IMG/VR virus record: IMGVR_UViG_2671180674_000015
Span: 1-17,240 of that record
Direction: 5' to 3' (one strand)
Source: a virus
Taxonomy: Duplodnaviria > Heunggongvirae > Uroviricota > Caudoviricetes
Length of the DNA: 17,240 nt
Shown: positions 361-17,240 of the stretch, piece by piece
Layout: each line of letters starts with the position of its first letter
How positions within the stretch are numbered: the first letter of the stretch is position 1
The notes under the pieces: model-generated
What the model was told of the DNA's origin: nothing
What the model saw: the letters and a program-made list of their open reading frames with translations, nothing else
Databases searched by the model: none
Position numbers and translations under genes: made by a program

Positions 361-452
361 CCCTTTCAGGTGAATGATATTTCCATACGCTGTTGGATAT
401 CCGTTGTTATACACCTCGTATAAATAGTTTGAATGATTAGCAGTTATGGTGA

Positions 453-1355: not shown

Positions 1356-1645
1356 ATCATAACGTCCGGTTTCTTCCGTGTCAGCACCGGGGCGTTGGCA
1401 TAATGCAATACGTGTACGCGCTAAACCCTGTGTGCATCGTTTTTAATTATTCCCGGACACTCCCGCAGAGAAGTTCCCCGTCAGGGCTGTGGACATAGTT
1501 AATCCGGGAATACAATGACGATTCATCGCACCTGACATACATTAATAAATATTAACAATATGAAATTTCAACTCATTGTTTAGGGTTTGTTTAATTTTCT
1601 ACACATACGATTCTGCGAACTTCAAAAAGCATCGGGAATAACACC

Positions 1646-1939: not shown

Positions 1940-1970
1940 TTGCATGAGTTGCCCATCGATATGGGCAACT

Positions 1971-2432
1971 CTATCTGCACTGCTCATTAATATACTTCTG
2001 GGTTCCTTCCAGTTGTTTTTGCATAGTGATCAGCCTCTCTCTGAGGGTGAAATAATCCCGTTCAGCGGTGTCTGCCAGTCGGGGGGAGGCTGCATTATCC
2101 ACGCCGGAGGCGGTGGTGGCTTCACGCACTGACTGACAGACTGCTTTGATGTGCAACCGACGACGACCAGCGGCAACATCATCACGCAGAGCATCATTTT
2201 CAGCTTTAGCATCAGCTAACTCCTTCGTGTATTTTGCATCGAGCGCAGCAACATCACGCTGACGCATCTGCATGTCAGTAATTGCCGCGTTCGCCAGCTT
2301 CAGTTCTCTGGCATTTTTGTCGCGCTGGGCTTTGTAGGTAATGGCGTTATCACGGTAATGATTAACAGCCCATGACAGGTAGACGATGATGCAGATAACC
2401 AGAGCGGAGATAATCGCGGTTACTCTGTTCAT
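1971..2432 (-). CDS. Rz: Rz i-spanin (inner-membrane spanin subunit)
   Basis: 153 aa from ATG 2432, which overlaps the endolysin stop in an ATGA arrangement. N-terminal TM helix and coiled-coil-like sequence; closely matches lambda Rz as I recall it. Confidence 0.85.
2030..2212 (-). CDS. Rz1: Rz1 o-spanin lipoprotein, embedded in the +1 frame of Rz
   Basis: 60 aa, lipobox VVVGC, proline-rich (PPPPP), wholly nested inside Rz. Confidence 0.85.
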
Positions 2433-2926
2433 TGCTGACCCCACAAACAGATTTCACGCTCAATCTCACGACGAGTCATGAGACCTTTCCATTGCTTACC
2501 GCCAGCATATGTCCAGCGACGTAGCTGATCACATGCGCCTTTGATATCGCCCTGGTTTATTTTGCGAAGAAGCGTCGATGTTCTGAAATTGCCAGCACCC
2601 ACGTTGTAAACGAATGAGTAAAGAGCGCCGCGCGTTGTTTCCGGTATATCGACTTTGATGTACGGGTTAATTTGTCTGGCGACAGTGGCAAGGTCTTTAT
2701 TCAAGAGTGCTTTGCATTCTGCTTTGGTATACGTTTTACCGAGCATGATGTCTTTTCCGGTGTGTCCGTGACATACAGTCCATACGCCAACGATATCTTT
2801 GTATGGTACGTAGCTGACACCTTCCAGACCATCGTTACCACTTGGGCCAGTGATTAACACTGATGCTATAGCAATTGCTCCGCCACCAATAGCAGCAGCA
2901 ACGGCTTTTCGTAATGATGGAGGCAT
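2429..2926 (-). CDS. R: SAR endolysin (T4-lysozyme-like muramidase, phage 21 R-type)
   Basis: 165 aa. N-terminal Gly/Ala-rich signal-anchor-release segment [16 protein letters not shown], followed by an E...D...T catalytic triad pattern. Start overlaps the holin stop. Confidence 0.85.
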
Positions 2927-3141
2927 TATTCACCTCTCGCAGCCTTGCGCTTATCTTCTTTAATCTTGAAATAAAGGTTTGTCAGGTACGTCAGCAGGCC
3001 AAATACCAGGCTACCCAGCACACCTATTGCTGCCCACTGTGAGGGCGTGACTTTATCGAGCAGCTGTAAAAACCAGTACCCGGCACTACCTGCTGAGGTG
3101 CCATAGGCGACACCCGTTGTTAACTTATCCATGGATTTCAT
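2926..3141 (-). CDS. S: Class II holin / pinholin (S21-type) with dual start motif
   Basis: 71 aa, MKSMDK dual-start (Met1/Met4) giving antiholin and holin forms, two TM segments. Sits immediately upstream of the SAR endolysin. Confidence 0.85.
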
Positions 3142-3257
3142 AACCCCACCTCGCAGACAAAGCGGGTGTAAATTGAGGGAATACTACGAAACGTAACAGA
3201 CTCGGAGTCAGTGAATAACTCAGGTATTGGGTTATCAGCTAATATCGAGACTCAAAA

Positions 3258-3292
3258 AATGGAAAAACCCGCTCGACGGCGGGTTTAAGCTG
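3258..3292 (-). terminator. Intrinsic terminator on the minus strand just upstream of the holin gene
   Basis: Minus-strand read AAACCCGC-CGTCGA-GCGGGTTT followed by TTCCATTTTTTG. Confidence 0.5.
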
Positions 3293-3714
3293 TGTGACGA
3301 AGTAACCACTCTTAACAGCATAACCAATTTTTTACGTACGTAAACCACTAAATGATATTTGCGAGAATGCTACCGAGTATTGAAAACACCACTACAAATA
3401 CATAAGCAAATCTCAACAAATAACCAACAAATAATTTCCAGCGTTATTTTTAGTCAATTTAAATTGAACCTTCAAATTATAGAGCACTTATAAATAACAG
3501 CCATTAATATAAATTGGCTAATAGATTTATTTTTATTCAGTCAAGAGCCATGAATAGGATTCGATAGAAAAAAGTTCAGATAAAAATAGAGATCTACTTC
3601 ACAAATCAAACGAGAAACCAAAACTTACATCTTGAAATATTCACATTGATTAGATGAATATTTATCGCGCAGTGACATCATTTTTTAATAATAGTTCAAA
3701 AAAAAGGGCTCACG

Positions 3715-4797
3715 ATGAAAAAATTAACAGTGGCAATTTCTGCTGTAGCTGCATCAGTACTGATGGCGATGTCTGCTCAGGCAGCTGAAATTTATAATAA
3801 AGACAGTAACAAGCTGGATCTGTACGGGAAAGTTAATGCTAAGCACTACTTCTCCTCTAATGATGCAGATGATGGTGATACTACTTATGCCCGTCTTGGC
3901 TTCAAAGGTGAAACCCAAATCAACGATCAACTGACTGGTTTCGGTCAGTGGGAATATGAATTCAAAGGCAACCGCGCTGAATCTCAAGGTTCCTCCAAAG
4001 ATAAAACCCGTCTTGCCTTCGCTGGCCTGAAATTCGGTGACTACGGCTCCATCGATTACGGCCGTAACTACGGTGTAGCATACGACATCGGTGCATGGAC
4101 CGACGTTCTGCCAGAATTCGGTGGCGATACCTGGACCCAAACAGATGTATTCATGACTGGTCGCACCACAGGTGTTGCAACTTATCGTAACAACGACTTC
4201 TTTGGTCTGGTTGATGGCCTGAACTTTGCAGCTCAGTATCAGGGCAAAAATGACCGAAATGAAGTAACTGAAGCTAATGGCGATGGTTTCGGTTTCTCAA
4301 CTACTTATGAGTATGAAGGATTCGGCGTGGGTGCAACCTATGCTAAATCTGATCGCACTAATAATCAGGTTATCTACGGTAACAACGGTCTGAATGCTTC
4401 TGGTCAAAATGCTGAAGTATGGGCAGCTGGTCTGAAATATGATGCGAACAACATCTATCTGGCCACCACCTATTCTGAAACCCAGAACATGACTGTTTTT
4501 GGTAATAACCATATTGCCAACAAAGCACAAAACTTCGAAGCTGTTGCACAATATCAGTTCGACTTCGGCCTGCGTCCATCCGTTGCTTACCTGCATTCTA
4601 AAGGAAAAGACTTGGGTGTTTGGGGTGATCAGGACCTGGTTGAATATGTTGATGTAGGTGCAACCTATTACTTCAACAAAAATATGTCCACTTTTGTTGA
4701 CTACAAAATCAACCTGATTGATAAGAGCGATTTCACGAAAGCATCTGGCGTTGCTACCGATGATATCGTTGCTGTAGGTATGGTTTACCAGTTCTAA
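3715..4797 (+). CDS. nmpC: Outer-membrane general porin, OmpC/OmpF family (NmpC/Lc-like prophage porin moron)
   Basis: 360 aa, signal peptide ending AQA|AE, porin-type beta-barrel with C-terminal Phe (VGMVYQF). Located antisense between Q and the holin, as nmpC is in DLP12 and lc in PA-2. Confidence 0.8.
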
Positions 4798-4811
4798 TTT
4801 GATTACTAAAA

Positions 4812-4893
4812 GATATGTTGTGGGAGGCTTTGCCTCCCCAACATATAAGTGGCTCCCTCAAGCCACTTCCTTTAGAAGCACAACCTTGCTTCT
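4812..4893. other. Cluster of three tandem stem-loops between the porin and Q 3' ends
   Basis: H1 ATATGTTGTGGGAGGC/ttt/GCCTCCCCAACATAT, H2 AAGTGGCT/ccctca/AGCCACTT, H3 AGAAGC/acaacctt/GCTTCT. On the minus strand H1 is followed by CTTTT (tR'-like). Confidence 0.45.
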
Positions 4894-4933
4894 AACTATA
4901 TAAACCTTCTGTTATATATTACCCTTTATTTTT

Positions 4934-4968
4934 GGGGGCGTTTCAACGCCCCATTTTTAATAACTTTT
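4934..4968 (+). terminator. Probable intrinsic terminator downstream of the porin gene
   Basis: GGGGCG/tttcaa/CGCCCC followed by ATTTTTAATAACTTTT on the plus strand. Confidence 0.45.
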
Positions 4969-4985
4969 AGTAAATAATTGGCGTA

Positions 4986-5369
4986 TTAATTAGAGTTATT
5001 AACAACGATATCCATCTCTAACCGGATATCTAATGCCATTAACATCCCTTCAATTATGCCCTCAGCCTTTTGTAACCTTTTCCCGATATAACCATCAGAG
5101 CAGCAATGCTTACCTGCCAGTGACATGAATGTCATACCGACTATATAATAATCTACTAATAAATCGTGCAAATCGCTGTTGTTCTTTTTCAGACGGGCCA
5201 TGCACCCGCAAATGATCATCGCGTCATCGTCACAACATTGCGGGCGAGATTTTACTTTTGAAGGAATTAATCCCTTAAAACCGGCGGCAATGGACGACCA
5301 GGTCACATCTTCATGATTATTAGCCGCCCACGCTCCCCAACGCTCAAGAACCATCTGAATATCACGCAT
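4986..5369 (-). CDS. Q: Late-gene antiterminator Q (phage 82 / DLP12 QuuD-type)
   Basis: ATG at 5369 (MRDIQ...) preceded by GGAG. The track's longer form starts at a TTG. Cys-rich putative zinc-binding region [12 protein letters not shown]. Sits between ylcG and the late/lysis region. Confidence 0.75.
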
Positions 5370-5454
5370 CAACTTACTCCACAAAAATCAGACCAAAACG
5401 CCAATTACAAGCAAAAATCAACAAAACAGTATTAGTTGATTGTTATCTCTGACT

Positions 5455-5595
5455 TCATACTCCTGCTCCTGTCAGGGTTTTGGCGTAACTCTTCAGTATT
5501 CGGTAATCGGTCAAAACAGAACCGGGGAAACGATATAAGCGCAGGCGCACCCAGCGGCGGCGAAGACGTTCTGCCATATAAGACTCAAACATCAT
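5455..5595 (-). CDS. ylcG: Small protein YlcG-like (46 aa), start overlapping the stop of the upstream RusA-derived ORF
   Basis: Reads [46 protein letters not shown], which resembles DLP12 YlcG from memory. Below the ORF-track size cut-off. Confidence 0.55.
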
Positions 5596-6395
5596 TCATC
5601 TCCCAGTTCAGTGATGGTCAGTTCCAGCCTCCCACCTTTGGTAACAGGCATCTTCACAACGCGGTAATCAACGACCTGAGCATCATCCAGCCAGAAACCT
5701 GCTTTGGTGAGTGCGTCAAAAGCGGCCTTTTGCAGATTATCCAGGTCACGGCGACGGCGATCCGGCATGTGGCTACCGCCCATGACAGGAAGTTGTTTTA
5801 CTGGTTCAGGGATCGCCTCACCACGGTTAATTCTCGCAGTCATATGGACAAGCTCATCTGCGGCCTTACGGCGTAATTCCGCATCAGTAAGCGCATTGGC
5901 CCGCATGTTCTGATACAGGTTGGTAACCAGCCAGTAGTGCGCGTTTGATTTCCACGGATAAGACTCCGCATCCGGATACAGGCCTCGCTTCCGGCAATAC
6001 TCGTAAACCATATCAACCAGCTCGCTGACGTTTGGCAGTCCGGCGATAACGGATGCTTCTTCCCGGCACCATGCAACAAACTGCCCGGGTGATGGCAGAA
6101 ATGGTCGATTCTGCCGACGGGCTACGCGCATTCCTGCGTTAACCTGTTCCATTGTGGTGATCCCGTTTTCCCGGAAAGCCAGAACCCACTGGCGGCGGAT
6201 TTCGTTCAGTTCGTTCTGGTCACGGTTAGCCAGACTCGCCGGGAAAGTTGCCAGTAACTGGCTGAACACACCGTTGATGATCTGCGCTACCTGCTGTACC
6301 TGCGGCTTTTCGTCGTACTGTTCCGGCATGTTGTTGGCGATCCGACTCATCTGCTCACGGTCAAAGTTAACCATCTGTGCGGCGATGTTTTTCAT
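5592..6395 (-). CDS. P: Replication protein P (N-terminal ~205 aa) fused in frame to the C-terminal ~60 aa of RusA Holliday-junction resolvase
   Basis: N-terminus [16 protein letters not shown]...[11 protein letters not shown] matches lambda P. The C-terminus [55 protein letters not shown] matches the RusA C-terminus. Junction near 5775. Confidence 0.75.
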
Positions 6396-7291
6396 AGATC
6401 CACCCCGTAAATCCAGTCTGTGTTTGTCAGGTCGAGTTTTGGTTTGCTGGCTGTCACGACTGCCTGTTGCTTGTTACGGTTGATTTCGAGCTGGGTCCAC
6501 TTGTCGCGGAGTTTGGCCGGGCTAAGCACGTTACCGGACCAGAAGTTGTCCTGGCATGCCCAGCGGAACAGCACGCACATGTCGCGGTGGTTACGTCCGT
6601 CACGTTCACGCATCAGGCGGATATCGTTAGCCCACCCTGCAAAATTCGGTTTTCTGGCTGATGGCGCGATGGTCTTCACCATGTCAAACATCCACTCTGC
6701 GGCGGTCAGGTCTTCTGCTGTCCCCCACTTGCTGCCGCTCTGAATTGCAGCATCCGGTTTCACCACAGAAAGGTCGTTTTCTGGCTGGTCAGAGGATTCG
6801 CCAGAATTCTCGGACGAATAATCTTTTCTTTTTTCTTTTGTAATAGTGTCTTTTGTGTCCCCCTGTTTTGAGGGATAGCAATCCCCCAATTTGAGGGATG
6901 TTTTATCCCTCGTTTTAGGGGATTTTCCCTCGTTTTGAGGGATACACCATTCTGAGATGTTTTTATTTGGTCCAAACATGCCGCCTTGCTGCTTGATAAT
7001 ATTCATTCTGACGAGTTCTAACTTGGCTTCATTGCACCGTTTGACAGGTAACTTTGTAATCTCGCTAAGTTGAGAATCGGTGATTCTGTCCATTGGTTTA
7101 TTCCACCCATAGGTTTTACGCAGAATGGCAAGCAGCACTTTAAACTGTCGCTTGGTCAGATCTGCGCCCGAATAAGCCTCAAGCAGCATATTTGATAGTC
7201 TGGCGTAACCATCATCGAGATCTGCCACATTACGCTCCTGTCCGGCAAAGTTACCTCTGCCGAAGTTGAGTATTTTTGCTGTATTTGTCAT
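6392..7291 (-). CDS. O: Replication initiator protein O (lambda-type)
   Basis: 299 aa; stop overlaps the P start (ATGA). Contains the iteron-encoding segment. Strong match to lambda O from memory. Confidence 0.9.
6806..6943. repeat. ori-lambda: four ~19-bp iterons plus adjacent AT-rich region, inside the O gene
   Basis: Direct repeats TCCCCCTGTTTTGAGGGAT, ATCCCCCAATTTGAGGGAT, ATCCCTCGTTTTAGGGGAT, TTCCCTCGTTTTGAGGGAT at 6857-6943, with an A/T tract at 6806-6856. Confidence 0.8.
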
Positions 7292-7301
7292 AATGACTCC
7301 T

Positions 7302-7378
7302 GTTGATAGATCCAGTAATGACCTCAGAACTCCATCTGGATTTGTTCAGAACGCTCGGTTGCCGCCGGGCGTTTTTTA
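7302..7378 (+). ncRNA. oop: OOP antisense RNA (antisense to the cII 3' end) with its intrinsic terminator
   Basis: Plus-strand GTTGATAGATCCAGTAATGACCTCAGAACTCCATCTGGATTTGTTCAGAACGCTCGGTTGCCGCCGGGCGTTTTTT matches my recall of lambda OOP. It overlaps the cII 3' end in antisense and ends in a hairpin plus T-run. Confidence 0.7.
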
Positions 7379-7620
7379 TTGGTGAGTCCATCAAGCGCAT
7401 ACTTAAAAGCCCTGCTAATCGGACTGATGTCTGATGCCATTCCGAAAGCACACAAGACCGAAGCAATAAATCTCCAGTCCGTTCTGCTTATCTTCGATTC
7501 ATGACAGCCAATCATCTTTGCCAGACCGCGCTGGGTAATAGCTGACAGATTGATAAGTAAATCTGTTTCTGCGCGATCAACGTCACGCTGTGATAGTTTG
7601 CTGTAACTTGTTCTTTCCAT
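7324..7620 (-). CDS. cII: CII transcriptional activator (mosaic: heterologous N-terminal part, lambda-like C-terminal tail)
   Basis: 98 aa. C-terminus LTNKKRPAATERSEQIQMEF matches lambda CII; the HTH region differs from lambda. Lies between cro and O. Confidence 0.75.
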   Translation of the reverse strand: MERTSYSKLSQRDVDRAETDLLINLSAITQRGLAKMIGCHESKISRTDWRFIASVLCAFGMASDISPISRAFKYALDGLTNKKRPAATERSEQIQMEF

Positions 7621-7705
7621 TTCTTAAGATTTCCAATAGTGAATAGTTAGTTGAAAGGTATGCGTGGAAACGCATATGGCCTTAGTTGGTCAGATATCTT
7701 GGAAC

Positions 7706-7751
7706 TCGCTTTTCAGCGACGTAGGACGAATGTCCGTTGTTACAAAGAGCG
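7706..7751 (-). promoter_or_regulatory. Putative nutR (boxA CGCTCTTTGTAACAA, intervening hairpin, boxB TCGCT-GAAA-AGCGA)
   Basis: Minus-strand boxA-like sequence 11 nt after the cro stop, then a 5-bp stem with GAAA loop. The same three-part layout recurs downstream of PL. Confidence 0.45.
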
Positions 7752-7761
7752 GATCCGCTTA

Positions 7762-7977
7762 TTAAGCGGCTTTGTGTTCCGGCGGGAACACGTCATCAAG
7801 ACTGACTTTTGCGCCTAACTTGTTTAGGCACGCAACAAGAGCACGGCATGTTTTAAGGTCTGGGAAGCGACGACCAGATTCCCAATGTCCGATAGCTCCC
7901 TGTGTGCATCCAACTGCCTTAGCAAGTGTTGTTTGAGAGATATTCAGTGACTCTCGATATTTTCGTAGGTTGCTCAT
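7762..7977 (-). CDS. cro: Cro-like HTH repressor (71 aa)
   Basis: ATG at 7977 preceded by GGAGGG. HTH segment QTTLAKAVGCTQGAIGHWESGRR. Divergent from cI across the operator region. The track's longer form overlaps the operators and was not used. Confidence 0.7.
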   Translation of the reverse strand: MSNLRKYRESLNISQTTLAKAVGCTQGAIGHWESGRRFPDLKTCRALVACLNKLGAKVSLDDVFPPEHKAA

Positions 7978-8088
7978 ATGCCCTCCATAGTAAACACGAA
8001 TAAAAAAATACAATATGTACTTTACGAATACAAGTAAAAATACATATTGTGCATGGATGGTTCCAGTACAAAGCGTAATAATAAGGAC
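7978..8088. promoter_or_regulatory. Divergent OR/PR/PRM region with three operator-like sites
   Basis: Sites at 8011-8022 (ACAATATGTACT), 8041-8052 (ATACATATTGTG) and 8066-8080 (AGTACAAAGCGTAAT) resemble the OL palindrome AGTACATATCGTACT. A -10-like TAATAT at 8077-8082 places a PRM start at about the cI ATG (leaderless). Confidence 0.5.
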
Positions 8089-8748
8089 ATGAAAATGAAA
8101 TGGTATGAACTGGCTAGATCCAGAATGAAAGAGCTCGGCATAACTCAAGAGAAGTTAGCCGAAGAACTAGGTATGACGCAGGGTGGGATTGGACACTGGT
8201 TGCGCGGATCTCGTCATCCATCTCTTAGTGATATTGGTGTGGTGTTTAAATACCTTGGTATTGATAACATATCATTCAACCACGACGGGACATTTTCACC
8301 TGTTGGCGAATACTCATCGGCCCCAGTTAAAAAACAATATGAGTACCCTGTTTTTTCTCATGTTCAGGCTGGGATGTTCTCTCCAGAACTCAGAACCTTT
8401 ACCAAAGGCGATGCGGAGAGATTGGTAAGCACAACCAAAAAAGCCAGTGACTCTGCATTCTGGCTTGAGGTTGAAGGTAACTCAATGACCGCACCAACAG
8501 GTTCCAAGCCCAGCTTTCCTGACGGGATGTTAATTCTGGTTGACCCTGAGCAGGCTGTTGAGCCAGGCGATTTCTGTATAGCCAGACTTGGTGGTGATGA
8601 GTTTACCTTCAAGAAACTGATCAGGGATAGCGGTCAGGTGTTTCTACAGCCACTAAACCCACAATACCCAATGATCCCATGCAATGAGAGTTGTTCCGTT
8701 GTGGGGAAAGTTATCGCTAGTCAGTGGCCTGAAGAGACGTTTGGGTGA
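8089..8748 (+). CDS. cI: CI prophage repressor, chimeric: heterologous N-terminal HTH domain with lambda-like linker and S24 autocleavage C-terminal domain
   Basis: From [17 protein letters not shown] through the C-terminal ...[12 protein letters not shown] it matches lambda CI (Ala-Gly cleavage site, Ser in GNSM, Lys in KKL). The N-terminal [24 protein letters not shown] is not lambda-like. ATG at 8089 (or 8095). Confidence 0.85.
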
Positions 8749-8794
8749 CAAGAAGCACAGGTATTAACAATAACTTTCATGGTGATACGAATCA

Positions 8795-9337
8795 GTGGCT
8801 AAAAAAGGCGACTTTAAGCCTACCCAGAAAGAGGTTGACCAAGCTATTACTCGCTTGAAAAAAGTAACTTTTAGCGGAGTTACATGGACCGGAAGTGAGG
8901 GACGAACCCCAATCTGGTTTAAATTGGATCTCAAAGCTTTTGATGAAATTGGCAACCCAATCACAGGCATAAGATTTATGCTTCACTGGCGTCCTCCTAT
9001 CGTTGAAGGGGTGGATATAGTGAAGATTTCATTTGTGATGTTTCTTCATGACAGGCGCATTTACGCGCTTGACCCGTACCCTGCGGATAACAAGCCACAC
9101 CGTAATAAATCTATAGTGAACCATCCAGATTTTGTTGAGGTGGCTCGAGGTCCTCACTATCACATGTACTTCGAATCAGCTGGGGAAGAAATTGCACTTA
9201 AGCTTGAAACGAACATCAAGCCAGATGATTTTTTTGGCTACTGGAATTATTTTTGCGAGGCGCTTAATATCATATATGAAGGCAGCCCACCTTTACCTAA
9301 TCAAGATAAATCAGGTCAGCTATCATGGGAAATGTAA
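8795..9337 (+). CDS. Hypothetical protein (180 aa), first gene of an unknown two-gene cassette in the rexA/rexB position
   Basis: ORF opens with GTG at 8795, 46 nt after the cI stop and with no intervening terminator. No motif I recognise. 3' end overlaps the next ORF by 13 nt. Confidence 0.55.
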   Translation: MAKKGDFKPTQKEVDQAITRLKKVTFSGVTWTGSEGRTPIWFKLDLKAFDEIGNPITGIRFMLHWRPPIVEGVDIVKISFVMFLHDRRIYALDPYPADNKPHRNKSIVNHPDFVEVARGPHYHMYFESAGEEIALKLETNIKPDDFFGYWNYFCEALNIIYEGSPPLPNQDKSGQLSWEM

Positions 9338-10101
9338 CGTGTTCAACAGTCATATCTAAGCTCGGGTTTGAATGCCACCCAATGAGCGACACGTTGCTGC
9401 GCGTTATTAGTCCCTTCACATACTACGATGATTGTGAGCAGATAAGTGTATTCGTTCAAGAGATGGGTGGTCAGTATAGGGTTACAGACTACTGCGATAC
9501 ATTGATGAATATTGAATCACGCGGCATCCACCTGACTAAAAAGAAAATTGATCTGATCAGGTCATCACTCGCTTCGCAAGGAATTTCATTAAATGACTCT
9601 GGAGAGATATCTGCGTGGGCAGATGAGTCGTCCGTTGGACAGGTAACTGCAAATGTTATTCGTGGTGGGATTCTTGCATCCGCCCAAACTGCTGATTGGT
9701 ATGCTGAGGTCAAAGACGATAAGTTCGAAAAATGTGTAATCAGTTACTTAAAATCAGCAGGGCTTGGGAAGCGACTAGCCTTAAAGGAAAAAGTGAAAGG
9801 TATTAGTGGGCATAACATTACTGTTCCGTTAACGCTAAGGAATGAGTCTCGACTAATACCACCAAAACGCGGGTTTACGGTAAGCCTTGCCAGCAGTAAG
9901 GGATGGAATACTGCCCACTCAACAGTTGGGAAGATTGTTGACTTAAGTCAGGTCGTTCCTGACATAAACAATAGATTTGTAATAGTTGACAGCGATGGGT
10001 TAACACCTGAGCTACAGCAACTATCACTACTATTTAATGATACCGCACGAGTGTTGCCATTCCATACCAGAGACTCTTGGATTGAGTCTCTGGTAGCCTA
10101 G
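9325..10101 (+). CDS. Hypothetical protein (258 aa from ATG 9325; alternative ATG 9382), second gene of the cassette
   Basis: Long ORF overlapping the upstream ORF's stop, followed directly by a strong terminator. No recognised catalytic motif. Confidence 0.55.
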   Translation: MGNVTCSTVISKLGFECHPMSDTLLRVISPFTYYDDCEQISVFVQEMGGQYRVTDYCDTLMNIESRGIHLTKKKIDLIRSSLASQGISLNDSGEISAWADESSVGQVTANVIRGGILASAQTADWYAEVKDDKFEKCVISYLKSAGLGKRLALKEKVKGISGHNITVPLTLRNESRLIPPKRGFTVSLASSKGWNTAHSTVGKIVDLSQVVPDINNRFVIVDSDGLTPELQQLSLLFNDTARVLPFHTRDSWIESLVA

Positions 10102-10133
10102 AAAAACCCGGCCTCAGCGCCGGGTTTTCTTTG
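10102..10133 (+). terminator. Intrinsic terminator after the immunity-region cassette (t-imm-like)
   Basis: GAAAAACCCGGC-ctcagc-GCCGGGTTTTCTTTG starting right after the TAG stop. Confidence 0.65.
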
Positions 10134-10305
10134 CCTCACGATCGCCCCACCTAAAAACACATAACCAATTGTATTTATTGAAAAATAAATAGATGCAACC
10201 CACTAAACCACGCAATTCTGATCTCTCCTTACATCGCCGAGGCAATACATCCACGCTAAAAAACAACACTATTAAATACAAAGCGTTATAAAAAACCACG
10301 CCAAC

Positions 10306-10356
10306 TTACAACAAATTGTATTGATCTTGTAAAGTACATATCGTACTATTTAACCG
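10306..10356 (+). promoter_or_regulatory. PL promoter with OL operator(s)
   Basis: -35 TTGATC (10321-10326), 17-nt spacer, -10 TACTAT (10344-10349). Palindromic operator AGTACATATCGTACT (10333-10347) overlaps the spacer and -10; a second related site is at 10311-10322. Confidence 0.5.
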
Positions 10357-10394
10357 TCAGCAGGACGCTGGAAGCCAAATGGAACAGACTGGCA

Positions 10395-10440
10395 GGCTCT
10401 TTAAACAACGTCGACTCTCGACTACGTGGCTGAAAAGCCA
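10395..10440 (+). promoter_or_regulatory. Putative nutL (boxA GGCTCTTTAAACAA, intervening hairpin GTCGA-ctc-TCGAC, boxB TGGCT-GAAA-AGCCA)
   Basis: BoxA-like sequence about 40 nt downstream of the predicted PL start, then a 5-bp stem with GAAA loop. Architecture parallels the nutR candidate. Confidence 0.45.
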
Positions 10441-10538
10441 GATCACCCAACCACATAAGCTGTGGGATGCAATGCCGAAGCAACCGTCTCAGGAGGAGCT
10501 TCGAGATTGCATCGCCAAAGTTTATTCGGGAGGAATCC

Positions 10539-10811
10539 ATGTCCAGAAAAACAGAATTTAAAGGCACCGCAGCTTCTCGCCGTAGAGCTCGTCGCGCAAA
10601 TCTGCAAAGTCAGGAGGCGATCAGCTCCGACAAGCTACACAGGCCAACCCCTTCACGAGTGGTCTTGCAATGCAAGCGCAAACCAGCAATGAGAGCAGAA
10701 GTGATAACTCTGACAACGTTGACCAGAAAATATGAAGGTTCAACTTGTCTTCCGAACGTAGCTCTTTACGCGGCAGGCTACCGGAAATCAAAACAACTGA
10801 CGGCGAGATGA
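10539..10811 (+). CDS. N: N-type transcription antiterminator (arginine-rich motif; P22 gene 24-like C-terminus)
   Basis: 90 aa from ATG 10539 with RBS GGGAGGA. N-terminal ARM GTAASRRRARRA; C-terminal ...LPNVALYAAGYRKSKQLTAR. First gene downstream of PL and nutL. Confidence 0.75.
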   Translation: MSRKTEFKGTAASRRRARRANLQSQEAISSDKLHRPTPSRVVLQCKRKPAMRAEVITLTTLTRKYEGSTCLPNVALYAAGYRKSKQLTAR

Positions 10812-10827
10812 TAAATTCATTTGCTAA

Positions 10828-11409
10828 TTACTTGTTTTTGCCATGCTTATCCTGAGCGATAAGTTCATCCATAAGGCTGTCTGCCTTCCCGGCAAACCGA
10901 ATGTAGCACTCATTTCTATAGCGTTCCGGGATAACAAAACGGTCGATTTCAGGATATCCAGTAGCAGAAGGTATCCGAATAAGAAGCCCTTTTTCGAGCA
11001 ATGAGATTGCTTCAGGGCTTCCCTTTTCTGTCTTTAGCTGGTTATTCGCGGCTACAGCGAATGCCAAATACGCTCTTTCTCCAAGAGTTAACGAATCAAA
11101 CAAATCTTGCACATATTTTTCTTCTTTAGATTTGCGCTTCTGAGCAGCGGATACCTCAATTCTTTCAGTCACAGCGTGATAAGCGGAATTAACAACACCG
11201 TTAAGCACATAGCTAACGCAGAACAACAGGATGTAATACATCCAATAATAAGGAAGGATTTCTGGATTATGCAGGTTTATCCATTCTTTTACGCTTACCG
11301 GCATAACAATAATCAATATGATCAGGATGATTAGCATATGAATCAACTGTTTAAGTGTCATTCCTTGCAGGAAAAAATGCATTAGTTCCTGCCACCATGA
11401 GTTGTTCAT
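10828..11409 (-). CDS. sieB: Superinfection exclusion protein B (SieB)-like membrane protein
   Basis: 193 aa, hydrophobic N-terminal segment LIHMLIILIILIIVMPV. Convergent with and directly abutting N, as lambda sieB is. Confidence 0.7.
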   Translation of the reverse strand: MNNSWWQELMHFFLQGMTLKQLIHMLIILIILIIVMPVSVKEWINLHNPEILPYYWMYYILLFCVSYVLNGVVNSAYHAVTERIEVSAAQKRKSKEEKYVQDLFDSLTLGERAYLAFAVAANNQLKTEKGSPEAISLLEKGLLIRIPSATGYPEIDRFVIPERYRNECYIRFAGKADSLMDELIAQDKHGKNK

Positions 11410-11552
11410 CGGCGTTTCTCTTTTGCTCTCTGTAGGGGTGAATAGAGTTTATCCGATTTCTCGCTGTAGGGGTACACGAGAACCACCGAGCCTGATGTGG
11501 TTAAAAGACAGGCACAATCTTTACTACCGCAATCCACTATTTAAGGTGATAT

Positions 11553-11639
11553 ATGGAAGAAGAATTTGAAGAGTTCGAAGAGCATCCTCAGGATGTGATG
11601 GAACAATACCAGGACTATCCGTATGACTACGACTATTGA
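11553..11639 (+). CDS. Small acidic ORF (28 aa), lambda orf28-like
   Basis: Reads MEEEFEEFEEHPQDVMEQYQDYPYDYDY. Its 3' end overlaps the ral start. Confidence 0.4.
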   Translation: MEEEFEEFEEHPQDVMEQYQDYPYDYDY

Positions 11640-11823
11640 TAAAAATCAATGGTGTGGACAATTCAAGCGATGCAATGGATGCAAGCTGCAATCGGAATGC
11701 ATGGTTAAGCCTGAAGAAATGTTTCCTGTAATGGAAGATGGGAAATATGTCGATAAATGGGCAATACGAACGACGGCAATGATTGCCAGAGAACTTGGTA
11801 AACAGAACAACAAAGCTGCCTGA
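11623..11823 (+). CDS. ral: Ral restriction-alleviation protein
   Basis: 66 aa, MTTTIDKNQWCGQFKRCNGCKLQSEC..., matches lambda Ral from memory; lambda gene order. Confidence 0.8.
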   Translation: MTTTIDKNQWCGQFKRCNGCKLQSECMVKPEEMFPVMEDGKYVDKWAIRTTAMIARELGKQNNKAA

Positions 11824-11957
11824 TAGTGGCCTTTATTTTTGGCATAAATAACAGAATAAACACTGCACTGTGTATTCATTCCAACGAGTGAATACACGGA
11901 GCAATGTCGCTCGTAACTAAACAGGAGCCGACTTGTTCTGATTATTGGAAATCTTCT

Positions 11958-11986
11958 TTGCCCTCCAATGTGAGGGCGATTTTTTA
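11958..11986 (+). terminator. Candidate intrinsic terminator or attenuator upstream of ea10 (tL2-like)
   Basis: GCCCTC-caatgt-GAGGGC followed by GATTTTTTA. Confidence 0.45.
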
Positions 11987-12005
11987 TCTGTGAGGATATG
12001 AACAG

Positions 12006-12374
12006 ATGTCAAACATCAAAAAATACATCATTGATTACGACTGGAAAGCATCAATAGAAATTGAAATCGACCATGACGTAATGACAGAGGAAAAACTTCA
12101 CCAGATTAATAATTTCTGGTCAGACTCTGAATACCGACTCAATAAACACGGCTCTTTATTAAATGCTGTATTAATCATGCTGGCGCAACATGCTCTGCTT
12201 ATAGCAATTTCAAGCGACTTAAATGCATATGGTGTTGTGTGTGAGTTCGACTGGAATGATGGAAATGGTCAGGAAGGATGGCCTCCAATGGATGGTAGCG
12301 AAGGAATAAGAATTACCGATATCGATACATCAGGAATATTTGATTCAGATGATATGACTATCAAAGCCGCCTGA
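12006..12374 (+). CDS. ea10: Ea10-like protein
   Basis: 122 aa, RBS GAGGA, located between ral and cIII as in lambda. Confidence 0.65.
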   Translation: MSNIKKYIIDYDWKASIEIEIDHDVMTEEKLHQINNFWSDSEYRLNKHGSLLNAVLIMLAQHALLIAISSDLNAYGVVCEFDWNDGNGQEGWPPMDGSEGIRITDIDTSGIFDSDDMTIKAA

Positions 12375-12446
12375 GCGCTGCGTTACCGCATACCAATAAC
12401 GCTTCACTCGAGGCGTTTTTCGTTATGTATAAATAAGGAGCACACC

Positions 12447-12611
12447 ATGCAATATGCCATTGCAGGGTGGCCTGTTGCTGGCTGCTCTTCCGAATCTTTA
12501 CTTGAACGAATCACCCGTAAATTACGTGACGGATGGAAACGCCTTATCGACATACTTAATCAGCCAGGAGTCCCAAAAAATGGATCAAACACTTATGGCT
12601 ATCCAGACTAA
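12447..12611 (+). CDS. cIII: CIII (FtsH inhibitor that stabilises CII)
   Basis: 54 aa, [54 protein letters not shown]. Below the ORF-track cut-off. Confidence 0.8.
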   Translation: MQYAIAGWPVAGCSSESLLERITRKLRDGWKRLIDILNQPGVPKNGSNTYGYPD

Positions 12612-12723
12612 ATTCACTATCGCCACTTTTATTGGCGATGAAAAGATGTTTCGTGAGGCCGTCGACGCTTATAAAAAATGGATATTAATACTGAAACTGA
12701 GATCAAGCAAAAGCATTCACTAA
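12580..12723 (+). CDS. kil: Kil (host cell-division inhibitor)
   Basis: 47 aa, [47 protein letters not shown]; overlaps the cIII 3' end and the gam 5' end. Confidence 0.75.
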
Positions 12724-13094
12724 CCCCCTTTCCTGTTTTCCTAATCAGCCCGGCATTTCGCGGGCGATATTTTCACAGCTATTTCAGGAGTTCAGCCATG
12801 AACGCTTATTACATTCAGGATCGTCTTGAGGCTCAGAGCTGGGCGCGTCACTACCAGCAGATCGCCCGTGAAGAGAAAGAGGCAGAACTGGCAGACGACA
12901 TGGAAAAAGGCCTGCCCCAGCACCTGTTTGAATCGCTATGCATCGATCATTTGCAACGCCACGGGGCCAGCAAAAAAGCCATTACCCGTGCGTTTGATGA
13001 CGATGTTGAGTTTCAGGAACGCATGGCAGAACACATCCGGTACATGGTTGAAACTATTGCTCGCCACCAGGTTGATATTGATTCAGAGGTATAA
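12678..13094 (+). CDS. gam: Gam (RecBCD inhibitor)
   Basis: 138 aa, near-identical to lambda Gam from memory; internal start MNAYYIQ for the short form. Confidence 0.9.
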
Positions 13095-13099
13095 AACGG

Positions 13100-13885
13100 A
13101 TGAGTACAGCACTCGCAACGCTGGCAGGGAAGCTGGCTGAACGTGTCGGCATGGATTCTGTCGACCCACAGGAACTGATCACCACTCTTCGCCAGACGGC
13201 ATTTAAAGGTGATGCCAGCGATGCGCAGTTCATCGCATTGTTGATCGTCGCCAACCAGTACGGCCTTAATCCGTGGACGAAAGAAATTTACGCCTTCCCT
13301 GACAAGCAGAACGGCATCGTTCCGGTGGTGGGCGTTGATGGCTGGTCCCGTATCATCAATGAAAACCAGCAGTTTGATGGCATGGACTTTGAGCAGGACA
13401 ATGAATCATGTACATGCCGGATTTACCGCAAGGACCGTAATCATCCGATCTGCGTTACCGAGTGGATGGATGAATGCCGCCGCGAACCATTCAAAACCCG
13501 CGAAGGCAGAGAAATCACCGGACCGTGGCAGTCGCATCCCAAACGGATGTTACGGCATAAAGCCATGATTCAGTGTGCCCGTCTGGCCTTCGGATTTGCT
13601 GGTATCTATGACAAGGATGAAGCCGAGCGCATTGTCGAAAATACCGCATACACTGCAGAACGTCAGCCGGAACGCGACATCACTCCGGTTAACGATGAAA
13701 CCATGCAGGAGATTAACACTCTGCTGATTGCCCTGGACAAAACATGGGATGACGACTTATTGCCGCTCTGTTCCCAGATATTTCGCCGCGACATTCGCGC
13801 ATCGTCAGAACTGACACAGGCCGAAGCAGTGAAAGCTCTTGGATTCCTGAAACAGAAAGCCTCTGAACAGAAGGTGGCTGCATGA
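13100..13885 (+). CDS. bet: Bet (Red-beta single-strand annealing protein)
   Basis: 261 aa, matches lambda Bet. Confidence 0.9.
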
Positions 13886-14562
13886 CACCGGACATTATCC
13901 TGCAGCGTACCGGGATCGACGTGAGAGCTGTCGAACAGGGGGATGATGCGTGGCACAAATTACGGCTCGGCGTCATCACCGCTTCAGAAGTTCACAATGT
14001 GATAGCAAAACCCCGCTCCGGAAAGAAATGGCCTGACATGAAAATGTCCTACTTCCACACCCTGCTTGCCGAGGTTTGCACCGGTGTGGCTCCGGAAGTT
14101 AACGCTAAGGCGCTGGCCTGGGGAAAACAGTACGAGAACGACGCCAGAGCCCTCTTTGAGTTCACTTCCGGCGTGAATGTTACTGAATCCCCGATCATCT
14201 ATCGCGACGAAAGTATGCGCACCGCCTGCTCTCCCGATGGTTTATGCAGTGACGGCAATGGCCTTGAACTGAAATGCCCGTTTACCTCACGGGATTTCAT
14301 GAAGTTCCGGCTCGGTGGTTTCGAGGCCATAAAATCGGCTTACATGGCCCAGGTGCAGTACAGCATGTGGGTGACACGAAAAGATGCCTGGTACTTTGCC
14401 AACTATGACCCGCGTATGAAGCGTGAAGGCCTGCATTATGTCGTGATTGAGCGGGATGAAAAGTACATGGCGAGTTTTGACGAGATGGTGCCGGAGTTCA
14501 TCGAAAAAATGGACGAGGCACTGGCTGAAATTGGTTTTGTATTTGGGGAGCAATGGCGATGA
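13882..14562 (+). CDS. exo: Exo (lambda exonuclease, Red-alpha)
   Basis: 226 aa, matches lambda Exo; start overlaps the bet stop. Confidence 0.9.
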
Positions 14563-14741
14563 AGCATCCTCACGATAATATCCGGGTAGGCGCGATCACT
14601 TTCGTCTACTCCGTTACAAAGCGAGGCTGGGTATTTCCCGGCCTTTCTGTTATCCGAAATCCCCTGAAAGCACAGCGGCTGGCTGAGGAGATAAATAATA
14701 AACGGGGAGCTGTATGCACAAAGCATCTCCCGTTGAGTTAA
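14553..14741 (+). CDS. Lambda orf60a-like small protein
   Basis: 62 aa; start overlaps the exo 3' end; lambda-like position. Confidence 0.55.
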
Positions 14742-14905
14742 GAACGAGTATCGAGATGGCACATAGCCTCGCTCAAATTGGAGTCAGGTTTGTGCCAATT
14801 CCAGTAGAAACAGACGAAGAATTTCATACGTTAGCCGCATCCCTTTCACAAAAGCTGGAAATGATGGTGGCGAAAGCAGAAGCAGATGAGAGAGACCAGG
14901 TATGA
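14714..14905 (+). CDS. Lambda orf63-like small protein
   Basis: 63 aa, overlaps neighbouring ORFs; lambda-like position. Confidence 0.55.
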   Translation: MHKASPVELRTSIEMAHSLAQIGVRFVPIPVETDEEFHTLAASLSQKLEMMVAKAEADERDQV

Positions 14906-14985
14906 CAACCACTGAATGCATTTTTCTGGTAGCGGGCTTCATATTCTGTGTGCTTATGCTTGCCGACATGGGACTTGTTCAATGA
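14902..14985 (+). CDS. Hydrophobic micro-ORF (27 aa), start and stop overlapping the flanking genes
   Basis: Reads MTTTECIFLVAGFIFCVLMLADMGLVQ; ATGA overlaps at both ends. Confidence 0.3.
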   Translation: MTTTECIFLVAGFIFCVLMLADMGLVQ

Positions 14986-15197
14986 CACCTCAGCAAGAAA
15001 ACGCCCTTCGCAGTATTGCCCGTCAGGCTAATTCTGAAATCAAAAAAGCCAGACAGCAGTTTCCGGATAAAAACGTCGATGACATTTGCCGTAGCGTACT
15101 GAAGAAGCACCGCGAAACGGTAACGCTGATGGGATTCACACCGACTCATTTAAGCCTGGCGATCGGCATGTTAAACGGCGTCTTTAAGGAACGGTGA
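14982..15197 (+). CDS. Lambda orf61-like small protein (alternative longer start at ATG 14916)
   Basis: Reads MTPQQENALRSIARQANSEIKKARQQF...; lambda-like position. Confidence 0.5.
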   Translation: MTPQQENALRSIARQANSEIKKARQQFPDKNVDDICRSVLKKHRETVTLMGFTPTHLSLAIGMLNGVFKER

Positions 15198-15217
15198 GCA
15201 TGAAAAACAAAATCATC

Positions 15218-15243
15218 ATGGAGCTACAGGCTCCTTTTTTATT
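15218..15243 (+). terminator. Weak intrinsic terminator candidate
   Basis: GGAGC-tacag-GCTCC followed by TTTTTTATT. Confidence 0.35.
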
Positions 15244-15295
15244 ATTCGCATTCACCCTCAAGCGTATTAACCAACAATTCAGGGATTAATGAAAG

Positions 15296-15517
15296 ATGGC
15301 AGACATCATTGATTCAGCATCAGAAATTGAAGAATTACAGCGCAACACAGCAATAAAAATGCGCCGCCTGAACCACCAGGCTATATCTGCCACTCATTGT
15401 TGTGAGTGTGGCGATCCGATAGATGAACGAAGACGCCTGGCCGTTCAGGGTTGTCGGACTTGTGCAAGTTGCCAGGAGGATCTGGAACTTATCAGTAAAC
15501 AGAGAGGTTCGAAGTGA
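15296..15517 (+). CDS. TraR/DksA-family C4 zinc-finger protein (lambda orf73-like)
   Basis: 73 aa with CxxC...CxxC (CCECGD ... CRTCASC), typical of TraR/DksA C4 fingers. Confidence 0.7.
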   Translation: MADIIDSASEIEELQRNTAIKMRRLNHQAISATHCCECGDPIDERRRLAVQGCRTCASCQEDLELISKQRGSK

Positions 15518-15727
15518 GCGAAATTAACTAGAAGACAAAGATAAAATCATCGCTGAGCAGGAGAAAATCGCTAACGGAGAAAAGACAGTAAGTCAGTATA
15601 TGAAAACCGCATGATATCATCAGATAAAAATCGATCGTAAAGCGAAATATTAATACCAGAATAAACGAGTCGAGGTAAATTATATTACCTCGATAAATTA
15701 ACTAAAACTTGCCCGCTATATACTATC

Positions 15728-16330
15728 TCATTCAGTATCATCACGCGCGGTCTGTGCATATGTTACTACCGCACCTAATGTATTAATTTTCTTTTCAACA
15801 TAGATAATATTATCGTACTCATAATTGCCATACGGATAGCAAATGCGAATATTCTCATGTAGATCGGGGTCATCCACCTCAGCTCCAGAACAACTTTTTG
15901 AACTACCGGAAGTATACCGATACGGTGCAACATAAGACGATGTCTCTCCAGGCAAAAAATAAGTTAGTGTTGTAAGGGGTATAATCAGAAAAAATCCAGC
16001 AAATATGCACATCCCTGCATAAACCTTAAGGTATGCTGACAGACTCTTCCAGCCGCTTTGTTTTACTATCCCCTTCTTAACCCAAAACAGAGATAACAGA
16101 AAAGCTATTCCCATGCTAAACAGAATGTAATAGTGGGATATACTCTGATTAAGAAACGTGACCCTGTAAATATCTGCCCGCCACCAGAAGAAAAGGAAAA
16201 TAAAGATCAGGCCTGAAACTGTCATGCAAATCAAATAAGGATACGAATCTTTTTTCATGTTTAGCGCCCATAAAATTTTTCCTGCCCCGGACAAATTTAC
16301 CATCCATTTTTTGCGCAGAAAATAGCTCAT
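15728..16330 (-). CDS. Hypothetical integral membrane protein (about 4 TM segments plus Cys/Tyr-rich C-terminal domain); start uncertain (ATG 16330, 16303 or 16258)
   Basis: 200-aa ORF on the strand opposite the PL operon. Hydrophobic stretches LICMTVSGLIFIFLFFWW, ILFSMGIAFLLSLFWV, GMCIFAGFFLIIPLTTL. Followed by hairpin CGAGGTAA/attata/TTACCTCG at 15671-15692. Confidence 0.5.
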   Translation of the reverse strand: MSYFLRKKWMVNLSGAGKILWALNMKKDSYPYLICMTVSGLIFIFLFFWWRADIYRVTFLNQSISHYYILFSMGIAFLLSLFWVKKGIVKQSGWKSLSAYLKVYAGMCIFAGFFLIIPLTTLTYFLPGETSSYVAPYRYTSGSSKSCSGAEVDDPDLHENIRICYPYGNYEYDNIIYVEKKINTLGAVVTYAQTARDDTE

Positions 16331-16572
16331 TACTTACTGCACAATAATACACAAAATTGCGTAAATTTTTTGCATGGATTTTAGCTCTTTCAGCCGACGT
16401 TTAAGGGGTAAATAGCATTTCCTAAAAGCAACTGCACCAACCCAACAGAATGAGCTACCGCTTACGTTGAGAGCAAAAAAGTGTATAGCAGCAATGAACA
16501 GCATCCTCGCACTGACGGGGATTTCTTTTATCTGAGCTCGTTACGGCGAGTTTTGTTTTATGGAGACAAGAA

Positions 16573-16917
16573 ATGTCAGATTTGGCTATGAAGGTTTTGA
16601 AATGGCAATCAACTGGCGATGTCGGCATCAGTAGCGCAACTCTTGCCTCAATCGCATGTGGCCTGAAAAAGAATATCTATGGTCATCACTTCGGCGCTCC
16701 CCATGACGCAGCAGACTTTCGGCGATGCGTTGCACTTGTTGAGCAGATTCCAGAAATCAGAGATTCATTCGACAAGGTTGCAAAGCGCGTTCCGGCATTC
16801 AAAGGAATCCTCAACGAATGGGATTCACTCGTTGCTCTGTTGAAGTCTGAAATGAAGACGTACGGGAACAAAGCACCAGAGACTTACAGAAGAATCAGCG
16901 AGCTACGCAAGGACTAA
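16573..16917 (+). CDS. Hypothetical protein (114 aa)
   Basis: ATG with RBS GGAGA at 6-nt spacing; no recognised motif. Confidence 0.5.
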   Translation: MSDLAMKVLKWQSTGDVGISSATLASIACGLKKNIYGHHFGAPHDAADFRRCVALVEQIPEIRDSFDKVAKRVPAFKGILNEWDSLVALLKSEMKTYGNKAPETYRRISELRKD

Positions 16918-17039
16918 CCCGCCTCACACTCGATGAGGCCTGTTCATTTCTCAAGATATCCAGACCTACCATTGCTGCATCAATGCGGCTTTTTATTGCC
17001 TGATTTGCAGGTTCGATTCCATATTCGGAGATAGCACTC

Positions 17040-17240
17040 ATGCAACACGAACTACAACCTGATTCACTGGTTGATTTGAAATTCATCATGGCTGATACTG
17101 GCTTCGGTAAGACCTTCATCTATGACCGGATTAAGTCCGGCGACCTGCCTAAAGCCAAAGTTATCCACGGACGAGCAAGATGGTTATATCGTGACCATTG
17201 TGAATTCAAAAATAAGCTCTTAAGCCGCGCCAATGGGTAA
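17040..17240 (+). CDS. AlpA-family excisionase / transcriptional regulator-like protein
   Basis: 66 aa, RBS GGAGA. Reads like a small winged-helix AlpA/Xis-type protein (TGFGKTFIYDRIKSGDLPKAKVIHGRARW). Positioned where xis lies in lambda. Confidence 0.55.
   Translation: MQHELQPDSLVDLKFIMADTGFGKTFIYDRIKSGDLPKAKVIHGRARWLYRDHCEFKNKLLSRANG

Follow-up and report, generated by a model that had tools for sequence, protein, structure and literature searches.

The 17,240-nucleotide (nt) stretch of DNA analysed here, called the window throughout (IMG/VR record IMGVR_UViG_2671180674_000015, positions 1 to 17,240), is a defective lambdoid prophage of the argW/dsdC site. Its PR operon lies on the minus strand and its PL operon on the plus strand. 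Within the exo-xis segment of the PL operon, between a TraR/DksA zinc-finger gene and ORF114, there is no plus-strand open reading frame (ORF) of 40 amino acids (aa) or more (15518-16572), and this interval holds a membrane-protein gene on the minus strand. The gene is the core of a moron cassette that is self-contained, spans about 775 bp (15621-16395, minus strand), and encodes a predicted inner-membrane protein. The features of the cassette and of its immediate border are as follows.

15621-16395, minus strand: mobile cassette common with P2-like prophages, holding promoter, gene, and hairpin (blastn against the E. coli P2-like prophage L015; promoter predicted)
15728-16258, minus strand: revised coding sequence (CDS), 176 aa plus stop, starting at M25 of a 200-codon ORF (homologue starts, upstream stops, dN/dS)
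16259-16330, minus strand: non-conserved 24-codon "N-terminal extension", whose frame is closed elsewhere and which holds the conserved extended -10 and -35-like blocks
16294-16302, minus strand: candidate extended -10 element TGgTAAATT, with TG.TAA.TT invariant in eight loci including the Cedecea chromosomal copy
16316-16323, minus strand: -35-like block GTTTTCTG, 16-18 bp upstream of the -10 element; the window reads ATTTTCTG
16338-16365, minus strand: three 10-bp-phased direct repeats of the (A/T)TTGTGCA type, TTTACGCA (16365-16358), TTTGTGTA (16355-16348), and ATTGTGCA (16345-16338)
15670-15693, minus strand: terminator-like hairpin with a 9-bp stem and a 6-nt loop, 34 nt after the stop codon, followed by CTCGTTTATT (T-rich tail, 15660-15669)
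16503-16522 and 16534-16553, plus strand: two terminator-like hairpins, the counterpart of tL4, which is annotated at the matching position in M60848 (phage 434)

A preliminary description of this DNA had reported a 200-aa ORF antisense to the PL operon. The ORF (200 codons, 15728-16330, minus strand) is present and does run antisense to the plus-strand PL genes, but the conserved protein has 176 aa, and comparative evidence places its start at the ATG at 16258-16256, which is M25 of the longer frame. A search of 5.8 billion proteins returned 74 relatives, all from Enterobacteriaceae. The diverged ones (42% to 78% identity, from Salmonella, Cedecea, Klebsiella, Enterobacter, and E. coli) are 169-180 aa long and all begin with MKK(D/Y)SYP, the equivalent of M25. 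In all nine other loci compared (L015, L004, L005, L016-18, L007, L009, and L012), a stop codon closes the frame one to seven codons upstream of this ATG. The shared start motif and the upstream stops therefore indicate a 176-aa protein beginning at ATG 16258. Two competing starts are annotated, a TTG in phage 434 that gives 188 aa and an ATG in RefSeq that gives 200 aa. By this comparison both models would take in non-coding sequence, and the 24 additional codons are most likely a 5' untranslated region and core promoter rather than coding sequence.

Pairwise ratios of nonsynonymous to synonymous divergence (dN/dS) over the 176-codon region are 0.10, 0.08, and 0.14 against three alleles, with synonymous sites near saturation, indicating strong purifying selection and therefore no chance ORF. 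A chance or decaying ORF in the junk of a defective prophage would be consistent with the P-RusA fusion elsewhere in the window, with the common occurrence of N-terminally shortened, 112-aa forms of a sister allele, and with a PHROG profile that models the C-terminal 90 aa only. However, dN/dS values of about 0.1 across alleles with saturated synonymous divergence effectively refute this explanation, and both the conservation of the architecture in 61 cluster representatives and a confident structure prediction also speak against it, leaving it next to no probability.

The preliminary description recognised no homologue, yet the gene is annotated in phages 434 (CPT_434_36), 2B8, and mEp332 and in O157 Sakai (ECs_0804), and it is homologous to System #4 of the P2 hotspot, discussed below. 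CPT_434_36, a "putative membrane protein" in OL657226, and "ORF-22+" of M60848 are the same gene as the one in the window. The copies in 434, 2B8, mEp332, and prophage Sp3 of O157:H7 Sakai have 99% to 100% protein identity over 176 aa and occupy the same place beside tL4. No function is assigned in the phage 434, Sakai, 2B8, or mEp332 records. In the literature, ECs0804 is without matches, the phage 434 genome announcement gives no function, and the papers on the exo-xis region are silent on the gene.

A profile search of 1.84 billion cluster representatives returned 61 proteins, nearly all of them full-length or fragmentary copies of the same architecture of three transmembrane (TM) helices followed by a beta-barrel. 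The single outlier, a 3074-aa repeat protein (P0124), was discarded as a low-complexity match to the Cys motif. The family is small and confined to Enterobacteriaceae. A Pfam scan of 20 members with E-values up to 10 gave only TM noise, with no match to SieB (PF14163), T4 Imm, colicin immunity, or NfeD, and a PDB profile search gave nothing below an E-value of 0.38. The protein does match phrog_1416 (unknown function; E 2.1e-50), a 90-position profile to which only residues 113-200 align, so that this PHROG represents TM3 and the barrel only. The 112-aa shortened form (TM3 and barrel, with a GTG start) belongs to the 78% identical sister allele (P0173 and P0175, E. coli) and is present on at least 1000 contigs; it is either a common pseudogene or a functional short form.

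The gene is shared between phage families together with its flanking signals. By blastn, window positions 16395-15621 match the E. coli P2-like prophage L015 with 76% identity over 778 nt. Beyond the CDS, this match extends over 137 nt on the upstream side and 107 nt on the downstream side, including the hairpin, and the upstream homology ends at 16395. Among lambdoid phages presence is patchy. HK022 and most other lambdoid phages lack the gene at this position, the only carriers in the phage collection are 434, 2B8, and mEp332, and HK022 and Stx phages contain the flanking ORF114/tL4 DNA without the membrane gene. Alleles of 78% (E. coli), 70%, and 58% (both Salmonella) identity are located in P2-like prophages, where the portal gene gpQ and the replication gene gpA flank them. 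This locus is an experimentally established anti-phage hotspot, which in P2 holds old and tin (PMC9122126). System #4 in the catalogue of its contents (Table S5B, Rousset et al. 2022, Cell Host Microbe) is listed with no Pfam domain, three TM segments, and an occurrence in 470 of 18,150 loci (PMC9122126). The System #4 representative is homologous to the window protein (52% identity over 168 aa, E 3e-57), bringing to four the distinct alleles in the gpQ-gpA locus. In the P2 hotspot of E. coli 2011C-4251, the cassette is followed by a truncated ead/Ea22-like pseudogene (L024 5775-6145), beside a ParM/StbB partition pair. Ea22 is a lambdoid exo-xis gene, and the position of its remnant against the cassette therefore argues for capture from a lambdoid phage along with a scrap of the neighbouring gene. 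Gene, promoter-like motifs, and hairpin have been recruited repeatedly to accessory hotspots of two unrelated temperate-phage families, and the earlier reading of the gene as a moron is supported by this movement of an intact cassette and by its patchy distribution. Overall, 915 of 5426 complete E. coli genomes carry the gene, and all but four of these matches (911 of 915) span at least 80% of its length.

The control region is more compact than first described. The preliminary description gave the gene a 220-bp divergent upstream region (16352-16572); the spacer exists, but it is composite, with only about 16287-16395 belonging to the gene and the rest being tL4 of the PL operon, whose two hairpins are no part of the membrane gene. 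The spacer gave no evidence that ORF114 is served by a divergent promoter. The conserved promoter-like elements that belong to the gene fall within 16294-16365, partly inside the 200-codon ORF. The sequence G(A/G)TG(G/A)TAAATTT at 16302-16294 is invariant across the window and the three closest alleles, and TG.TAA.TT is also found in the 58% identical Salmonella allele. In the -35-like block, the four closest cassettes agree throughout the TTTTCT core (seven of eight positions) and vary in the leading base, which is A in the window and G in the rest; the block is a weak match to TTGACA (three of six). An A-tract is also common to the upstream DNA of the window and of the three closest alleles. 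This conservation points to an extended -10 sigma-70 promoter with a weak -35 element, from which transcription would start near 16287. A transcript from there would exclude all three of the earlier candidate start codons (two ATGs and the TTG of phage 434), in agreement with translation from M25.

Upstream of these elements are the TTGTGCA repeats, of which the window has three copies, the first degenerate, and P2-like prophage cassettes two to three. Copy number differs (two versus three) between the near-identical Salmonella P2-like cassettes L004 and L005, in which the repeats lie about 90-120 nt upstream of the gene. The repeats resemble tor boxes, Pho boxes, and DnaA boxes only in part. 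At the other end of the cassette, the downstream hairpin noted earlier is a perfect 9-bp stem, at 15670-15693 instead of the 15671-15692 first given. It was scored as terminator-like by the scan, and its 73-nt fold has a z-score of -2.2 and is beaten by only 5 of 200 shuffles. In L015, one stem pair has changed from A-T to G-C (compensatory), one has become G-U, and one is broken. Rfam has no match in the region of the membrane gene. A 56-aa ORF at 16334-16504 (minus strand), annotated in phage 434 as CPT_434_35, "putative membrane protein", is probably not a gene; it spans the cassette boundary at 16395 and overlaps the tL4 region, has no family match, and has no gene called at the equivalent place in L015.

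The repeats also raise the question of CII. Promoters of the lambda type such as pI and paQ are activated by CII, and the second and third repeats of the window form TTGT-N6-TTGT (TTGTGTATTATTGT, 16341-16354), which fits TTGY-N6-TTGY and is labelled a CII site in OL657226. If this site were genuine, the gene or an antisense transcript would be switched on during the establishment of lysogeny, yielding protein early or damping distal PL expression, and the orientation antisense to PL would suit such a role. The window phage's own pRE reads TTGC-N6-TTGT (TTGCTGTAACTTGT) followed by 13 nt and TAAGAT, so TTGT half-sites are acceptable. However, matches to TTGYN6TTGY in the window are at the level of chance (5 found, 4.4 expected), and the hexamer at the canonical 13-nt spacing is AGCTAT, which lacks the A at position 2, in contrast to TAAGAT at pRE, and is not conserved in the closest alleles (TGCTGT and AGTTGT). 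The repeats form a 10-bp tandem array of variable copy number that is kept in P2-like prophages, phages for which, as a family rather than for the loci compared, we know of no CII homologue. The invariant element is the downstream TGnTAAATT, and a CII-dependent transcript would contain upstream ATGs for which other alleles have no open frame. Control by CII thus appears improbable. A perfect TTGC-N6-TTGC (TTGCCGAGGTTTGC) is present within exo (14066-14079, plus strand, in the direction of PL) and is probably a chance match, because the total count of the motif is at expectation.

The encoded protein was examined by hydropathy and structure prediction. The Kyte-Doolittle profile peaks three times, at residues 31-50, 64-84, and 101-126 in the numbering of the 200-codon ORF, and never exceeds 0.33 in the 24-residue extension. 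AlphaFold2 (20-sequence alignment) predicts three helices and then five beta-strands with a mean predicted local distance difference test score (pLDDT) of 87, and the C-terminal 75 residues predicted separately reach a pLDDT of 92.8. Hydropathy and model thus agree on three TM segments in place of the four or so first proposed. In the numbering of the 176-aa protein, the predicted parts are the following.

16181-16240, minus strand: TM1, residues 7-26 (hydropathy peak 2.09; model helix 5-29)
16079-16141, minus strand: TM2, residues 40-60 (hydropathy peak 1.69; model helix 38-61)
15953-16024, minus strand: TM3, residues 79-102 (hydropathy and model helix 70-101)
15731-15952, minus strand: C-terminal five-stranded beta-barrel, predicted to be periplasmic
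15890-15892 and 15839-15841, minus strand: codons of the two invariant cysteines of the barrel

The loop between TM2 and TM3 (residues 61-78) is basic, with a mean net charge of +3.65 across 20 homologues, and is presumably cytoplasmic. By the positive-inside rule, this loop therefore predicts an N-in/C-out topology, in which three TM helices would be followed by a 74-aa barrel in the periplasm. The C-terminal 74 aa contain nine Tyr and two Cys, as expected from the Cys/Tyr-rich tail reported earlier. Across the same homologues, the C-terminal domain carries a net negative charge, and each homologue has just two cysteines in it (C123 and C140). These are predicted to lie at the base of the beta2-beta3 hairpin, and a Cys123-Cys140 disulfide probably staples the barrel.

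Taken together, these features are consistent with a gene that acts from the resident prophage. The cassette is inserted antisense in the exo-xis segment of the PL operon, where lambda has ea22, and its product would be a 176-aa inner-membrane protein whose N-terminus lies in the cytoplasm and is followed by three TM helices and the periplasmic barrel. Transcription would begin near 16287 from the weak -35/extended -10 promoter and end at the 15670-15693 hairpin, and the three phased TTGTGCA repeats upstream may bind a regulator. Since the gene opposes PL, it could be expressed in the repressed prophage and silenced on induction by convergent, antiterminated PL transcription. An envelope protein made in this way might shield the lysogen from incoming phages at the step of DNA entry, and the barrel would be its surface of interaction. 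The location of the gene in accessory and defence hotspots makes a part in blocking incoming phages plausible, and exclusion at the level of the envelope is, by analogy, the most likely function, although we hold this only tentatively. The anatomical part of this reading is highly probable; the reading as a whole, from moron cassette through membrane protein and promoter to exclusion, falls somewhat short of an even chance. A bolder version, which we regard as doubtful, is that of a new single-gene family of envelope exclusion factors shuttling, as a unit of promoter, gene, and terminator, between lambdoid and P2-like prophages. In this version, the disulfide-stapled, OB-like barrel in the periplasm would catch either the tape-measure or ejection proteins with which an incoming phage delivers its DNA or an entry factor of the inner membrane, and a host response regulator or phage CII would adjust expression through the TTGTGCA repeats.

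The size of the protein, its three TM helices, and independent expression from the opposite strand are also reminiscent of the immunity genes of pore-forming colicins. The gene could accordingly encode an orphan immunity protein, against a pore-forming bacteriocin or an effector of contact-dependent inhibition (CDI) or type VI secretion (T6SS), or else a membrane toxin of abortive infection, and TM proteins are common as effectors in hotspot systems (PMC9122126). However, no colicin, immunity, or toxin family of Pfam is matched at E-values up to 10, and in the contexts examined no toxin, sensor, or antitoxin gene is consistently adjacent. The gene stands alone and is kept at 80% or more of its length in 911 genomes. 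These observations make the toxin-like function raised in the preliminary description unlikely, and an immunity or toxin role in general very improbable.

Several observations weigh against exclusion or against parts of the proposed anatomy. The Shine-Dalgarno sequence ahead of M25 is weak in the window allele, and a consensus promoter scan did not call the promoter of the gene, which rests on conservation. Pfam, NCBIfam, and PADLOC scans of the membrane protein gave no match, and no system-component hidden Markov model of PADLOC-DB 2.0 was matched at E-values up to 1. Fold searches returned only generic small-barrel or TM-helix matches. There is no sequence relation to the superinfection exclusion protein SieA of phage P22 (hhalign probability 0.2%), and the literature yielded no experiment on any member of the family. 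The P2 hotspot contains non-defence cargo as well, such as partition systems and cytolethal distending toxin, and the sequence of System #4 is absent from the table of evaluated systems, being catalogued only (PMC9122126). Finally, at least seven Enterobacter species have orthologues of 36% to 45% identity at a single conserved locus in non-phage chromosomal DNA, and the Klebsiella and Cedecea copies are also outside prophages. The syntenic non-phage copies in Enterobacter somewhat weaken the case for exclusion.

Since both chromosomal and prophage copies exist, the family has a chromosomal and a phage-borne branch. In several Enterobacter species (L012, L027-L030, L034, and L035), the orthologue starts about 16 nt after the stop codon of a gene for a LysR-family regulator and is followed by a convergent GGDEF gene, an arrangement that suggests co-transcription with the regulator. 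The synteny and vertical inheritance in Enterobacter, sometimes with the LysR-family gene 16 nt away, and the stand-alone chromosomal copies in Klebsiella and Cedecea would fit a cellular function in the envelope, for example in stress tolerance, as partner of a membrane protein, or as accessory to a sensor, which phages carry as a benefit to the host. The lack of a defence-database match and the mixed cargo of the P2 hotspot point the same way. This explanation has to contend with four independent alleles in the gpQ-gpA hotspot and with the recurrent placement in the accessory segment of lambdoid phages. Defence genes also exist as lone chromosomal genes, so that the chromosomal copies are no bar to defence. 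We consider an envelope function of this kind unlikely, if a serious competitor, and keep envelope-level exclusion by the prophage as the preferred explanation.

The remaining genes of the window place the cassette in its prophage context.

Plus-strand order: cIII, kil, gam, bet, exo, orf60a-like, orf63-like, a 93-aa ORF, TraR/DksA zinc-finger gene, ORF114, TorI-type excisionase gene
15296-15517, plus strand: TraR/DksA zinc-finger gene (orf73/TraR homologue)
16573-16917, plus strand: ORF114
17040-17240, plus strand: TorI-type excisionase gene
4986-5384, minus strand: Q antiterminator gene
2429-2926 and 1971-2444, minus strand: lysis genes R and Rz

The excisionase (17040-17240) is of the TorI (KplE1/CPS-53) type and adjoins dsdC in a near-identical prophage of E. 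coli RM9088; the window thus pairs an exo-xis segment like that of 434 with an integration module of the KplE1 type. Between tL4 and ORF114, phage 434 contains an additional ORF55 (about 196 bp) that the window lacks. A single minus-strand ORF (5592-6395) is a fusion of two gene fragments, an N-terminal portion of replication protein P (PF06992) and a C-terminal portion of RusA (PF05866). The nin region that would separate P from RusA appears to be deleted in full, and the prophage is therefore defective. Between the Q antiterminator gene and lysis genes R and Rz lies a full-length Gram-negative porin gene (3715-4797, plus strand; Porin_1, E 3.6e-152), in an NmpC/DLP12-like arrangement. Directly downstream of cI, in the position of lambda rexAB, are two genes (8795-9337 and 9325-10101, both plus strand) with DUF6978-like and DUF1828 domains of Pfam. 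They have weak PADLOC matches to candidate system PDC-M24 (A, 3.8e-4; B, 4e-7), and this two-gene cassette (8795-10101) is possibly a prophage defence pair. A homologue of the superinfection-exclusion protein SieB is encoded inside the PL region (10828-11409, minus strand; PF14163, E 7e-25), so the prophage already has one recognised exclusion gene. Rfam also identifies the lambda cIII thermoregulator RNA element (RF01804, 84 bits) at 12434-12492 (plus strand), ahead of cIII.

Earlier entries for the ORF, in databases and one published catalogue, describe it without exception as "hypothetical", "putative membrane protein", or "3 TM", and give it no function or domain family. New here are its start codon, the predicted topology and fold class, a conserved promoter architecture, and the boundaries of the cassette. 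New as well are the link, with direct evidence of transfer, between a lambdoid exo-xis gene and System #4 of the P2 hotspot and the chromosomal branch in Enterobacter. About one in six complete E. coli genomes has the gene, including O157:H7 (prophage Sp3/CP-933K). It is also found in the classic phage 434 and ranks fourth by frequency among the cargo of the P2 defence hotspot, yet has been assigned neither function nor domain family. If it is an exclusion factor, it would be a widespread single-gene mechanism at the membrane that current defence finders overlook, and it would bear on predictions of phage susceptibility in pathogenic E. coli and Salmonella. If it does not act in defence, a conserved envelope protein family of Enterobacteriaceae would be worth characterising. 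The limits of the cassette, together with the ea22 remnant found in a P2-like hotspot, provide a worked example of the exchange of accessory modules between two unrelated families of temperate phages.

In architecture, the window protein resembles the short NfeD proteins (B. subtilis YuaF and E. coli YbbJ; PF01957), which in about 150-175 aa combine TM helices at the N-terminus with a five-stranded OB-type beta-barrel at the C-terminus. As functional analogues of the proposed exclusion factor, we suggest P22 SieA, HK97 gp15, and T4 Imm. SieA is an inner-membrane superinfection exclusion protein of 162-164 aa with three predicted TM helices and its own promoter, and it blocks the ejection-protein conduit (PMC10883804). 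It is like the window protein in size, number of TM helices, origin from a temperate phage, and possession of a promoter of its own (predicted for the window gene). The two differ in that the FxRYPxEAxxFNK motif of SieA (predicted cytoplasmic) is absent from the window protein, whereas SieA lacks a Cys-bearing C-terminal beta-barrel. Compared with the exo-xis genes of lambda (orf60a, orf63, orf61, the orf73/TraR homologue, ea22, and ea8.5), the membrane gene shares their variable segment, directly after the orf73/TraR homologue and before xis. Those genes, however, lie on the strand of the PL operon and have soluble products, whereas the membrane gene is antisense to them and has its own predicted signals. 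System #4 has the same three TM helices and the same CSGA...ICYP C-terminal domain as the window protein and differs in its setting, with the window copy in the exo-xis segment of a lambdoid prophage and System #4 in the hotspot of P2-like phages.

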